Sequence record: PQ864023.1
Reading direction: 5' to 3' (one strand)
DNA: 64,000 bases
Origin: Enterobacter phage vB_Ecl_SABI
Part shown: positions 37,805 to 40,072 of the stretch, piece by piece
Position numbering within the stretch: position 1 is the stretch's first letter
How the letters are laid out: each line of letters begins with the position of its first letter
The notes under the pieces: model-generated
Seen by the model: only the letters and a program-made list of their open reading frames with translations
Databases searched by the model: none
What the model was told of the DNA's origin: nothing
Position numbers and translations under genes: made by a program

Positions 37805-39079
37805 TCAACTTAATGCGTAATTGGAGTTACGAATTTTGTCGCCCAGATTAGGTGACAGCTTCTCGTACTTACCATCAGTGATTTGGTAAAGCTGACACAT
37901 CAGCATTTCCAGCAGGTTAGAATCAGCCATATCAGCCATGATTTCTTTGTACCAGTAACGAGTGAGGTCACAGTTATTGGCATGAGCACCAAAGGCATCA
38001 TGGACAGTCAGGATAGGGAATGGCTTGTAAGACAGCATATCGTTAACGATAGACAGCAGCTTATGCACCATCCACTTAGGCAGACACATCACGTTATCCC
38101 AACGCAGCAACGGCAGGAGCGCCACATCAGCGATGTGAGAGCGAATGCACAGTGGCAGCAGTTCACTGAGTTCATCAGTGCAGGCCATCTGAGTATTACC
38201 GCAGGAATAGCCCAGAGCAGCCATACGCAGGACTTCCTGAGCATTACGTACAACCACTGGATCGTAGTTGCAACGACGCTCAATACCACGCAGGAGATAC
38301 GCATCACAGAAGTGGATGGTATTTGCTACGTTAGCACGTCCACGCTCTGTACCCTCGTTCACACGATATTGCAGCGTAAACGTTGCATGGTCGAGTTCGT
38401 CCACTTCAATTCTGGTTTCCTTGGTTTCCATTACCTTGATGACGGCTGTGAAGCCATCAGGAGCCACCAGACGGTGTTCCAGGGCAAATGGACGCCATGA
38501 TTCCAGAAGCTCATCCATGAGCTTGAATGCGCCCGGAGCGATGGTCATAGCTGCATCGTAGAACACGTCCAGCATTTCACCTTCACCGAATACCTTCTTA
38601 GGCACAGCTTTAGAGCCATAGCCTGAAGTCATTACGGCTTGTTTAACGTCACCACGAGGAACCGTGATACTTGCTAACCCTTTGGTTTGCAGGATCTTGT
38701 TCATCTCGCCAGTGGTGTTGCTGTAGGCATCCATACGCTGATTTGGGTCAACCATACCAGTGTTGTACGCACCAGCTTCACAGCCAGTAAGTGCAGACAT
38801 AATCTGGATACCGGAGCAGCAGGCATCGAAGTGAACTACGTGGCCTACAGCCTCACCGTGCTGAGCACGGCGAAGGGTCATAACAGCTTTCTTGAACAGC
38901 ACTGGTTCATCGGCATCATCTGCCAATGTTTCCAGGTTATCGATGTGGTCATACACCCACTGAATGCGGGTGTTGAACAGTTCTTTATCCAGCCCATAAT
39001 GGTTGGCTACGTCAATGCAGAGATATTCCCAGCCGGAGAATCTCTGGAAGCCAGTACCGAAATTGATAGTATGTTGCAT
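37805..39079 (-). CDS. T7-like single-subunit RNA polymerase, C-terminal (palm/fingers) subunit
   Basis: 'HFDACCSGIQIMSAL' matches T7 'DGSCSGIQHFSAM' (motif A). 'SGYGSKAVPKKVF' matches the T7 motif B region 'AYGSKEFGF'. 'VHDAFGAHANN' matches T7 motif C 'HDSFGT'. Confidence 0.75.
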   Translation of the reverse strand: MQHTINFGTGFQRFSGWEYLCIDVANHYGLDKELFNTRIQWVYDHIDNLETLADDADEPVLFKKAVMTLRRAQHGEAVGHVVHFDACCSGIQIMSALTGCEAGAYNTGMVDPNQRMDAYSNTTGEMNKILQTKGLASITVPRGDVKQAVMTSGYGSKAVPKKVFGEGEMLDVFYDAAMTIAPGAFKLMDELLESWRPFALEHRLVAPDGFTAVIKVMETKETRIEVDELDHATFTLQYRVNEGTERGRANVANTIHFCDAYLLRGIERRCNYDPVVVRNAQEVLRMAALGYSCGNTQMACTDELSELLPLCIRSHIADVALLPLLRWDNVMCLPKWMVHKLLSIVNDMLSYKPFPILTVHDAFGAHANNCDLTRYWYKEIMADMADSNLLEMLMCQLYQITDGKYEKLSPNLGDKIRNSNYALS

Positions 39080-39091
39080 AAGTTATTCCTC

Positions 39092-40072
39092 TCATTTTCT
39101 GAATTGCGCAGGGACACCTGTTACTTGCTCTTGATCGGCAAAGTTAATCATCGCTTTCTTGAAGCTGGTTCCCTGTGGGGTGATGTGGTAGCCACAGGCG
39201 TACATGCGCCCACGTTTGTCTACCTTGTTGCTGATGTAGAACCTGTTACCCTGGTTTACCATCAGGCTATAGAAGTAATACGACTGCTCTTTGTAACGCG
39301 CCCAGTTTTGCTTCTGTTTGCGTACCATATCGGCTATCTGCCAGTCACTGAGATCCTCGTCAGAGTCAATAACATCGAGATCGTGAGTTGGTTCTTCCTC
39401 CACTGTGCAAAGGAATTGCACGTCCAGGGAGAGAGGAACACGATTGCGTGAATTAAGTACATCAAGGCAGATGTTTCCGTCATGATGGTTAAATCCTCCA
39501 CCCAGAATCAGGCTATCTGATTCATGCGTGTAATAGGCGGTTGAACGGTTATTTACCAGTTCACGAGGTTCACAAACCAGTGGTGGTAAATAGCATGAGT
39601 ATGCAATGAAATTGCTTAATCTCTCATCAAAGGTGATGTTAGATTTGATATACAGACTGGCTTTAGGGTGTGGTTTGCTGATGTCATAAACATCAGTTTC
39701 ACACAGCACAGCCAGCACTTCGGCAATGGTCTGAATGCTGTCACGCTTATCGTCAAAGCCGATACGTGAAGCCAGTTGACCAATGACGTTGACCAGTGGT
39801 GTTTCCTCCTGTACGTAGCACACGCCTACGAATATCTCGACAACCAGCTTCTCTAAGTCCAGTTGTCTTAAGTGACTGATACGGACAGCTTTGCTGTCAT
39901 AGAACTGCTGATCCATCCATTGATTCAATAGCTCTACGCCCTGTGCTACTTCAGGCCAGAGGTTCTCCTGGCCTTCGAAGAGTTCTGCACGGATATAGCC
40001 ATCAATATGCTTACGGTTGAACTGACGTTCATTGATAAGTTGCAATTCTTCCTTAGCGAGCCAACGGTGCAT
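39092..40072 (-). CDS. T7-like single-subunit RNA polymerase, N-terminal subunit
   Basis: 'KVDKRGRMYACGYHITPQGTSFKKAMINFA' matches T7 'NMDWRGRVYAV..FNPQGNDMTKGLLTLA'. Adjacent to and co-oriented with the C-terminal subunit. Confidence 0.7.
   Translation of the reverse strand: MHRWLAKEELQLINERQFNRKHIDGYIRAELFEGQENLWPEVAQGVELLNQWMDQQFYDSKAVRISHLRQLDLEKLVVEIFVGVCYVQEETPLVNVIGQLASRIGFDDKRDSIQTIAEVLAVLCETDVYDISKPHPKASLYIKSNITFDERLSNFIAYSCYLPPLVCEPRELVNNRSTAYYTHESDSLILGGGFNHHDGNICLDVLNSRNRVPLSLDVQFLCTVEEEPTHDLDVIDSDEDLSDWQIADMVRKQKQNWARYKEQSYYFYSLMVNQGNRFYISNKVDKRGRMYACGYHITPQGTSFKKAMINFADQEQVTGVPAQFRK

Follow-up and report, generated by a model that had tools for sequence, protein, structure and literature searches.

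Two adjacent genes of Enterobacter phage vB_Ecl_SABI almost certainly encode an N4-type RNA polymerase II (RNAPII), a T7-like RNA polymerase (RNAP) that is naturally split into a small and a large subunit. The genes, here called RNAP1 and RNAP2, lie within the 64-kb stretch of DNA that was analysed (the window; record PQ864023.1). The split polymerase itself is, of course, an ordinary feature, already known; what is new is only the phage lineage. To our knowledge, all N4-like phages carry a two-piece T7-like RNAPII.

The window holds most of the genome of an N4-like (Schitoviridae) phage. It encodes homologues of 25 N4 proteins, arranged in N4 order. Its N4-like core genes include those for rIIA/B, helicase, DNA polymerase, primase, single-stranded DNA-binding protein (SSB), portal, and major capsid protein. 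A preliminary description of this DNA had placed here two open reading frames (ORFs) that together encode about 750 amino acids. Both are present on the minus strand, and their products add up to 750 amino acids. Table 1 collects the features of the locus.

Table 1. Coordinates of the RNAPII genes, their spacer, and the candidate cofactor gene in the window
Feature	Coordinates	Strand	Length	Remarks
RNAP2, predicted large catalytic subunit	37805..39079	minus	424 aa	N4 gp16 orthologue by homology
RNAP1-RNAP2 intergenic spacer	39080..39091	minus	12 nt	GAGGAATAACTT; RNAP2 Shine-Dalgarno site and second in-frame stop (TAA)
RNAP1, predicted small subunit of heterodimeric RNAPII	39092..40072	minus	326 aa	N4 gp15 orthologue by homology
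Candidate Drc-type ssDNA-binding RNAPII cofactor	40666..40950	minus	94 aa	LUZ7 gp14 family; early block, 0.6 kb upstream of RNAP1

The two subunits and their match to T7 RNAP

RNAP1 contains an N-terminal domain, a thumb, and the DxxGR motif (D285-K-R287-G-R289), the same domain content that a review describes for N4 gp15 (PMC4496689). The stretch NKVDKRGRMYACGYHITPQG is found in its translation, with D285, R287, R289, and Y291 as the key residues. When compared with PHROG profiles, RNAP1 matches phrog_2166 (“N4-like RNA polymerase”) at 2.1e-112. Its PDB match is chain A of 6DT7 (6dt7_A, 3.5e-23), and BLASTP aligns it with N4 gp15 at 35% identity (2e-27). A Pfam search with RNAP1 gave no match, as the Pfam model stops short of the small subunit. 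Because of this, the identity of RNAP1 needs evidence from PHROG, the PDB, or the fold.

The fold is available from an AlphaFold model (pLDDT 90.9). A fold search with this model returns 6dt7_A at the top (E 1.7e-14, TM-target 0.70), followed by the mitochondrial and T7 RNAPs, which RNAP1 resembles in fold. The first ~150 residues gave no sequence alignment to N4 gp15, and are matched by fold and family profile only. Closer relatives are, of course, easily recognized; the “RNA polymerase small subunit” of phage Nepra shares 82.5% of its amino acids with RNAP1.

RNAP2 contains the palm and the fingers. Motif A reads HFDACCSGIQ (D85). Motif B (R142, K146, Y154, G155) lies within KQAVMTSGYGSK, H256 follows, and motif C reads LTVHDAFG (H360, D361). 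The Pfam RNA_pol profile (PF00940), proposed earlier as a check on both ORFs, finds RNAP2 with 73.1 bits (2.7e-20), above the gathering threshold of 22 bits, and does not find RNAP1. Elsewhere, RNAP2 matches phrog_2051 (2.9e-149), chain B of 6DT7 over residues 12-424 (6dt7_B, 1.1e-52), and N4 gp16 (BLASTP, 33% identity, 1e-60). Matches as strong as those of the two ORFs lie far outside what chance would produce. Judged by these alignments, RNAP1 and RNAP2 are orthologues of N4 gp15 and gp16, as the preliminary description had surmised, and nothing was found that contradicts an assignment to RNAPII.

How the two products are laid against T7 RNAP matters here. If the two halves are entered separately in MAFFT beside the complete T7 RNAP, the small subunit is stacked on the large one, which is misleading. 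RNAP1 and RNAP2 were instead concatenated before being aligned with T7, N4, and LUZ7, and pairwise BLASTP was used as well. In the concatenated alignment, D285, R287, R289, and Y291 of RNAP1 fall on D421, R423, R425, and Y427 of T7 RNAP, while D85, K146, Y154, and D361 of RNAP2 fall on D537, K631, Y639, and D812. RNAP2 also matches T7 R627, G640, H784, and H811. Thus, every catalytic residue is conserved in the pair, and the motifs quoted in the preliminary description are all found in the two translations, on the catalytic positions of T7.

The two ORFs match contiguous and non-overlapping parts of T7 RNAP. In the T7-like profile phrog_414, RNAP1 residues 150-318 cover positions 222-424, and RNAP2 residues 15-157 cover positions 426-595. 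BLASTP against T7 RNAP itself places RNAP1 225-317 on residues 358-452, and RNAP2 16-193 on residues 456-652. The split had been described as one between an N-terminal region and the palm and fingers. The split is real, but that boundary is not. The cut falls inside the palm, just past the DxxGR motif, at T7 residue ~453/454, and it does so in the window, N4, and LUZ7 alike. These three also have in common an insertion of ~80 amino acids before motif C.

With T7 RNAP and the rest of the single-subunit RNAP family (PF00940, including the mitochondrial RNAPs), the enzyme shares the catalytic core and all signature residues. T7-like RNAPs are defined as single polypeptides; here, two ORFs are found, parted by stop codons, and their products are together 133 amino acids shorter than T7 RNAP. 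By analogy with N4, the enzyme would also differ from T7 RNAP in depending on an ssDNA-binding cofactor, rather than on its own recognition of a duplex promoter.

The junction and the integrity of the genes

RNAP1 and RNAP2 share one reading frame. The junction reads TGA GAG GAA TAA CTT ATG, where both TGA and TAA are stops in frame. A Shine-Dalgarno site, GAGGA, stands 7 nt ahead of the ATG of RNAP2; another, AAGGAG, stands 6 nt 5' of the ATG of RNAP1. Four independent metagenome contigs, with as many as 84 differences from the window over the 2268 nt of the locus, have exactly the same junction. RNAP1 differs from its counterparts in these contigs by 13-18 nt and by no amino acid; RNAP2 differs by 26-66 nt and by 0-7 amino acids. 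Nearly all of the differences are at third codon positions. The pair is also found conserved in 467 phage records. RNAP1 and RNAP2 are intact genes, both strongly constrained by purifying selection and both preceded by a ribosome-binding site of their own.

A common frame and a spacer of only 12 nt are, of course, what would be seen if a single T7-like RNAP gene were split only in appearance, by an error in sequencing or assembly, by a nonsense mutation that is making it a pseudogene, or by a frameshift that was missed. The chance of this is negligible. Against it stand the two stops in frame, the Shine-Dalgarno site and start codon that RNAP2 has of its own, the identity of the junction in the four contigs, and the purifying selection on both ORFs; no frameshift joins them. 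The second stop, in turn, means that fusion of the two products by stop-codon read-through is essentially excluded. Frameshift, read-through, and pseudogene are accordingly rejected on the evidence of stops, junction, and selection. Other phages argue in the same direction. N4 and LUZ7 are split at the same T7 position, the spacers of N4 (47 nt) and Nepra (10 nt) are out of frame, and LUZ7 has an additional ORF between its two genes. RNAP1 homologues are 295-340 amino acids long in all of the best 120 of 661 matches, and crystals of the N4 enzyme contain two separate chains (6DT7 A/B). It is likewise very improbable, if somewhat less so, that RNAP1 and RNAP2 have decayed to a remnant, or have taken on another task (for example, the synthesis of replication primers only), and no longer transcribe middle genes. 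The residues for catalysis and for rNTP discrimination are all intact (D85, D361, K146, Y154), purifying selection is strong, and the pair is kept across the phage records counted above. The preferred reading is an RNAPII made of two chains, which would transcribe the middle genes.

The recruiting cofactor

In N4, RNAPII relies on an ssDNA-binding cofactor and does not itself recognize a duplex promoter (PMC4496689). The preliminary description suggested that a cofactor like N4 gp2 be sought among the neighbouring genes. It is absent. No homologue of N4 gp1 or gp2 is found in the window by tblastn at 1e-3. A search with phmmer --max of all stop-to-stop segments of the window gives best E values of 1.3 for gp2 and 0.85 for gp1. 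The eight window ORFs scanned nearest the RNAP genes include no match to phrog_4099, the family of N4 gp2.

What is found instead is the 94-aa ORF of Table 1, whose product is likely to be an ssDNA-binding cofactor of RNAPII of the Drc type. It matches phrog_6271 at 1.3e-15 over residues 1-87; authentic LUZ7 Drc falls in the same family at 5.2e-37. A profile built from 16 homologues of the ORF finds Drc (6qlc) as its sole match in the PDB, at E 0.019, and hhalign of the family with Drc gives a probability of 81.6% over 80 columns. Pairwise, the relation is distant; BLASTP aligns the ORF with LUZ7 gp14 at 37% identity over 46 residues (5e-5). Profile and PHROGs are needed to see it, as a single-sequence phmmer search of the PDB finds Drc at E = 1.6 only. 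The assignment is thus one of profile similarity, of moderate strength. The AlphaFold monomer of the ORF has a pLDDT of 60.4; Drc itself forms a dimer, and only 16 close sequences were available for the alignment. A Foldseek search of the PDB with this low-confidence model gave nothing under E = 1.

The literature provides a frame for these matches. LUZ7 Drc binds both ssDNA and RNAPII, as has been demonstrated for LUZ7 only, and the N-terminal region of RNAP1 has been proposed to bind the cofactor (PMC7145618). The window resembles LUZ7 (RNAPII gp20 + gp22; Drc gp14, PDB 6QLC) in having an extended N-terminal domain in RNAP1, in having, upstream of RNAP1, an early-block gene for a phrog_6271 protein of ~95 amino acids, and in lacking gp2. 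It does not resemble LUZ7 in the ORF that separates the two RNAP genes there.

Might another protein recruit the heterodimer? A highly diverged gp2-like protein, or an ssDNA-binding protein of a third type, would have room among the ~25 early-block ORFs that have no assigned function, and a third, unknown SSB has been proposed for some N4-like clades (PMC7145618). The moderate match to Drc, the poor structure model, and the want of a fold match leave it that room. We nevertheless consider recruitment by such a protein unlikely. No window ORF resembles N4 gp2 or gp1 at E ≤ 0.8 by phmmer --max, or by tblastn at the threshold given above. The 94-aa ORF shares a PHROG family with authentic Drc, and its family profile draws no other sequence from the PDB. 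Drc homologues are reported from the CB1-like phages, which are the closest relatives that have a name (PMC7145618). The N-terminus of RNAP1 is long, as in LUZ7 (326 and 311 amino acids), against the 269 amino acids of N4 gp15. A Drc-type cofactor therefore remains the reading to be preferred.

Relatives, transcription programme, and meaning

The N4 enzyme (gp15 + gp16; PDB 6DT7/6DT8/6DTA) is homologous to that of the window in sequence and fold. In both phages the gene for the small subunit comes first, with that for the large one next to it, where the early block ends, and the motifs are shared out alike, with DxxGR on the small chain and A, B, and C on the large. The N4 enzyme differs in that amino acid identity is only 33-35%, that window RNAP1 is 57 amino acids longer than gp15, that the spacer is short and in frame, and that N4 has the gp1/gp2 cofactors.

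The closest named orthologues of RNAP1 and RNAP2 are those of the Cbunavirus phages (Pectobacterium Nepra, CB1, CB3, CB4, and Possum), Kosakonia Kc283, and Escherichia EK8. In these relatives the RNAP genes have the same order and a short spacer, and are annotated as “RNA polymerase small subunit / large subunit” or “RNAP1-like / RNAP2-like.” RNAP1 is 82-83% identical in amino acids to the Nepra and CB3 versions; Kc283 and EK8, the nearest named relatives, have ~77-79% nucleotide identity. Nucleotide similarity to the Cbunavirus-group relatives covers, however, only ~20% of a 25-kb query. The window phage is, therefore, a different species from these relatives, and probably, by this measure, of a different genus. 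Its lineage occurs in metagenome scaffolds of ~75 kb, one of them a 75.4-kb scaffold in ERZ28566908, and has at most ~79% nucleotide identity to any named phage. In these relatives, as in the window, a tail-fibre/lysis module is placed within the replication block; the single fibre gene of Nepra is replaced in the window by two tailspike genes. The lineage has a tailspike of the colanic-acid type.

The RNAP genes stand, as the preliminary description said, between a block of small early ORFs and the replication module. Upstream are ~25 small minus-strand ORFs (40091-47257); downstream are replication genes (homologues of helicase, rIIA/B, and DNA polymerase). The description also spoke of a middle-gene polymerase. 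This is right as to which genes the enzyme transcribes, but not as to when its own genes are expressed. In N4, the RNAPII genes are early and transcribed by the virion RNAP, and RNAPII then transcribes the middle genes (PMC4496689). A heterodimer that makes RNA on ssDNA templates and resists rifampicin is known, from biochemistry, for N4 and LUZ7 only (PMC4496689, PMC7145618); further literature on mechanism supports the RNAPII reading (PMC6027278).

By analogy with N4 and LUZ7, the RNAP1 and RNAP2 genes, at the end of the early block, would be transcribed by an injected virion RNAP. GC-ATA-GC hairpins at 41.0-45.6 kb may be early promoters. The products of the RNAP1 and RNAP2 genes would form a heterodimer that, on its own, does not transcribe duplex DNA. 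A small ssDNA-binding protein of the phage, most likely the Drc-type candidate and not a pair like N4 gp2/gp1, would bring it to middle promoters that are AT-rich and locally melted. RNAPII would then transcribe the middle (replication) genes, which lie downstream on the same strand. For the late genes the host RNAP would then take over, with the N4SSB homologue at 563-1330 as its activator. No ORF or match for the virion RNAP is found within the window. Its gene would lie outside the window, in the remaining ~11 kb of the genome, because the two ends of the window fall in a gp46 homologue and in a virion structural protein; in the relative Nepra, the virion RNAP is at the corresponding position.

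The importance of these observations is mostly one of annotation. The RNAP1/RNAP2 pair shows that the window comes from an N4-like phage, and it sets the boundary between early and middle genes. It predicts a programme of three polymerases, where virion RNAP is followed by heterodimeric RNAPII with its ssDNA-binding cofactor, and this by host RNAP with the phage SSB. Placement of the lineage is mildly useful. It fits the Drc branch of the Schitoviridae rather than the gp2 branch, which lends support to a proposal in the literature that the split polymerase and recruiting SSBs of different kinds evolve together. We somewhat favour the broader view that, in an enterobacterial clade of Schitoviridae, RNAPII has exchanged recruitment by gp1/gp2 for a Drc-type cofactor that acts via the enlarged N-terminal domain of RNAP1. 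If this is true, the Drc mechanism, shown only in the Pseudomonas phage LUZ7, would extend to phages of the gut Enterobacteriaceae.

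Identity of the two subunits

The preliminary description held that two adjacent ORFs encode a T7-like single-subunit RNA polymerase as two polypeptides, matching the heterodimeric RNAPII (gp15 and gp16) of coliphage N4. Both ORFs have the positions, lengths and strand proposed for them, and their translations contain the proposed motifs: NKVDKRGRMYACGYHITPQG in the small subunit (RNAP1), and HFDACCSGIQ, KQAVMTSGYGSK and LTVHDAFG in the large subunit (RNAP2).

The match to N4 is upheld by several kinds of comparison. In PHROG, RNAP1 falls in phrog_2166 (“N4-like RNA polymerase,” 2.1e-112) and RNAP2 in phrog_2051 (2.9e-149). 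The Pfam RNA_pol profile (PF00940), suggested as a check on each ORF, recognizes RNAP2 (2.7e-20, 73.1 bits against a cut-off of 22) but not RNAP1, for which Pfam gives no match. The best PDB sequence matches are the two chains of 6DT7, chain A (“RNAP1,” 3.5e-23) for the small subunit and chain B (“RNAP2,” 1.1e-52, end to end) for the large; T7 and mitochondrial RNA polymerases are weaker matches of RNAP2. Against proteins taken from the N4 record, BLASTP gives 35% identity between RNAP1 and gp15 (2e-27) and 33% between RNAP2 and gp16 (1e-60). The sequence alignment with gp15 is limited to RNAP1 residues ~150-317. Here, an AlphaFold model of the whole of RNAP1 (pLDDT 90.9) has N4 gp15 as its top fold match over the full length (E 1.7e-14, TM normalised to target 0.70), followed by yeast and human mitochondrial RNA polymerases and T7 RNA polymerase. 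Orthologues in named relatives are annotated “RNA polymerase small subunit / large subunit” or “RNAP1-like / RNAP2-like,” and the paper on the Pectobacterium phage CB1 explicitly names the CB1 counterparts as homologous to the heterodimeric polymerase of N4 (PMC6027278).

As far as sequence can test it, each defining feature of an N4-type RNAPII is present. The two products together hold a complete T7-like catalytic core.

Features of the polymerase locus and related genes
Feature	Position	Strand	Remarks
RNAP1, small subunit	39092..40072	-	326-aa ORF
RNAP2, large subunit	37805..39079	-	424-aa ORF
Candidate Drc-type protein, 94 aa	40666-40950	-	phrog_6271; 0.6 kb upstream of RNAP1
N4SSB homologue	563-1330		phrog_743, 1.7e-69; 2.6e-21 against N4 gp45
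N4 gp20 lipoprotein homologue	33573-34352	-	84.6% aa identity to N4
N4 gp22 homologue	34930-35253	-	62% identity to N4
N4 gp41 homologue, N-terminal part	6189-6446	-	75.6% identity to N4

Reality and position of the split

The two genes share a frame, yet TGA and TAA stops intervene; the junction reads TTC AGA AAA TGA GAG GAA TAA CTT ATG CAA. RNAP1 has an AAGGAG Shine-Dalgarno sequence 6 nt ahead of its ATG, and RNAP2 has a ribosome-binding site of its own, GAGGA, within the 12-nt spacer and 7 nt ahead of the second ATG. Independent loci speak against a missed frameshift or sequence error that would join the two genes. The exact 326-aa protein occurs on 17 metagenome contigs, scaffolds of 75.4 and 75.6 kb among them. 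In all four contigs listed of those 17, genes of 326 and 424 aa are called 12 nt apart, and in all four loci read the spacer is the same. These loci show 0-84 nt differences from the window over 2268 bp, almost always at third codon positions, with 13-18 nt changes and 0 aa changes in RNAP1, and 26-66 nt changes and 0-7 aa changes in RNAP2. The genes are intact, separately translated and under purifying selection. Further, all of the best 120 of 661 RNAP1 homologues are 295-340 aa long; the spacers of N4 and of the Pectobacterium phage Nepra differ from this one in length and frame, and Pseudomonas phage LUZ7 has an additional ORF between its subunit genes. Together with the metagenome contigs and the codon-position pattern, these arrangements show that the split is real, ancient and selected.

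Nor do the subunits align to non-contiguous or overlapping parts of T7 RNA polymerase. On the T7-like profile phrog_414, RNAP1 covers positions 222-424 and RNAP2 426-595. By BLASTP, RNAP1 225-317 corresponds to T7 358-452 and RNAP2 16-193 to T7 456-652, while HDAFG of RNAP2 aligns with T7 HDSFG (810-814). When RNAP1 and RNAP2 are concatenated and aligned with T7, N4 and LUZ7, the three split enzymes (those of the window, N4 and LUZ7) share a junction at T7 ~453/454. The same alignment pairs RNAP1 D285/R287/R289/Y291 with T7 D421/R423/R425/Y427, and RNAP2 D85, R142/K146/Y154/G155, H256 and H360/D361 with T7 D537, R627/K631/Y639/G640, H784 and H811/D812. The enzyme is therefore not divided between the N-terminal and palm/fingers regions, as had been proposed, but inside the palm, directly past the DxxGR motif.

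Lineage and genome context

Megablast with the locus and with a 25-kb stretch returned only N4-like podoviruses (Schitoviridae): the Pectobacterium Cbunavirus phages Nepra, CB1, CB3, CB4 and Possum, Kosakonia Kc283, Escherichia EK8 and Klebsiella phages, at 77-79% identity over about 20% of the query. By tblastn, 25 N4 proteins have homologues in the window, in N4 order; these include gp15/16, gp24/25, rIIA/B, helicase, DNA polymerase, exonuclease, primase, gp44, N4SSB, portal, gp57 and the major capsid protein. The hallmark of N4-like phages, a giant virion RNA polymerase (vRNAP; ~3,500 aa), was not found within the 64-kb window. The window opens within a gp46 homologue, and its far end falls in a virion structural protein (phrog_24558). 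In relatives such as Nepra, vRNAP occupies the position bracketed by these ends, so the gene probably lies outside the window; at ~11 kb, the remainder of the genome (matching metagenome contigs are ~75.4 kb) has roughly the length of the vRNAP gene.

About 90 bp (47257-47346) separate the first minus-strand early ORF from the first plus-strand ORF, a member of phrog_2109 situated immediately upstream of the large terminase. In N4, the early-gene (left) end of the linear genome is its physical end; in LUZ7, a terminal repeat flanks the early-gene end. Since the early block here adjoins the terminase side, the window probably derives from a circularly permuted assembly, with the genome termini joined at 47257-47346.

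Core genes have only 28-50% identity to N4, and the closer homologues of gp20, gp22 and gp41 (table) suggest that these accessory genes were recently exchanged with Enquatrovirus-type coliphages. Within the minus-strand replication block lies a plus-strand module (6885-16252), flanked by thymidylate synthase and DNA methyltransferase genes, with a tail protein, two tailspikes (922 and 801 aa), endolysin, an Rz-like spanin and two Ig/Hoc-like proteins. Nepra shares this layout, with a single 976-aa fibre gene instead of the two tailspikes. The 801-aa tailspike matches phrog_6117 (“colanic acid degradation,” 9e-207), and a depolymerase of this type is a hint that the host is enterobacterial.

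Immediately downstream of RNAP2, some metagenome contigs that are otherwise near-identical contain a gene for a 176-aa HNH_3 endonuclease (5313-5843 in one); the window (37633-37797), like other contigs, has just a 54-aa ORF there. An HNH endonuclease is also encoded close to this position in Nepra, and the site looks like one of mobile homing-endonuclease insertion beside the polymerase genes.

N4-type RNAPII has been known since 2002, and its structure was solved in 2018 (PDB 6DT7). The present one is already known as well, being annotated in the nearest relatives and its genes called on public metagenome contigs. The phage itself appears to represent a species or genus not yet described; its RNAPII is ordinary.

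Proposed recruitment and transcription programme

A cofactor resembling the ssDNA-binding gp2 of N4 had been suggested among the neighbouring genes. None was found in the window by tblastn, nor by phmmer --max against all 838 of its stop-to-stop segments (best E 1.3 for gp2, 0.85 for gp1). Instead, a 94-aa ORF matches phrog_6271 (1.3e-15 over residues 1-87), as does Drc, the ssDNA-binding RNAPII cofactor of LUZ7 (gp14, PDB 6QLC; 5.2e-37). A 16-homologue profile of the ORF has Drc as its only PDB match (E 0.019), hhalign relates the family to Drc with 81.6% probability over 80 columns, and BLASTP gives 5e-5; the monomer model is of low confidence (pLDDT 60) and yielded no fold match. Drc instead of gp2 is reported in Luzseptimavirus, Litunavirus and CB1-like phages, and its carriage is tied to a larger N-terminal domain of RNAP1 (PMC7145618). 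RNAP1 has 326 aa here, against 311 in LUZ7 and 269 in N4. The 94-aa protein is probably the cofactor that recruits RNAPII.

Six short hairpins with 3-nt loops (41388-41404, 41023-41039, 45541-45553, ~44887-44897, 43952-43968 and 37070-37084) lie in or beside intergenic gaps of the early block or, in one case, a short way beyond the RNAP genes. Their sequences on the coding (minus) strand are AACGTGC-ATA-GCACGTT, AACGCGC-ATA-GCGCGTT, TACGC-ATA-GCGTA, GTGC-ATA-GCAC and, twice, GCAC-TCC-GTGC. In the template (plus) strand the loop sequence is TAT or GGA, in either case with a central purine, as in the rule given for the hairpin promoters of N4 virion RNAP; published candidate promoters of CB1 likewise have TAT loops (PMC6027278). 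When folded as ssDNA, the strongest hairpins reach z-scores of -2.5 to -4.2. Across the window, the heptamer GCATAGC shows no excess over chance (11 matches, 8.7 expected); five of its six minus-strand copies lie within 41.0-45.6 kb. These hairpins may act as early promoters or as terminators.

In N4, the genes for RNAPII belong to the early class, transcribed by the injected virion RNA polymerase, and RNAPII itself then transcribes the middle genes (PMC4496689). The term “middle-gene polymerase” thus suits the enzyme's targets but not its own genes, which in N4 are early. By analogy with N4 and LUZ7, RNAP1 and RNAP2 would pair into a heterodimer able to bind ssDNA only, and a small ssDNA-binding cofactor, probably the Drc-like protein, would bring it to locally unwound AT-rich middle promoters. 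RNAPII would transcribe the same-strand replication module downstream, and the N4SSB homologue would then switch on the host RNA polymerase at the late genes.
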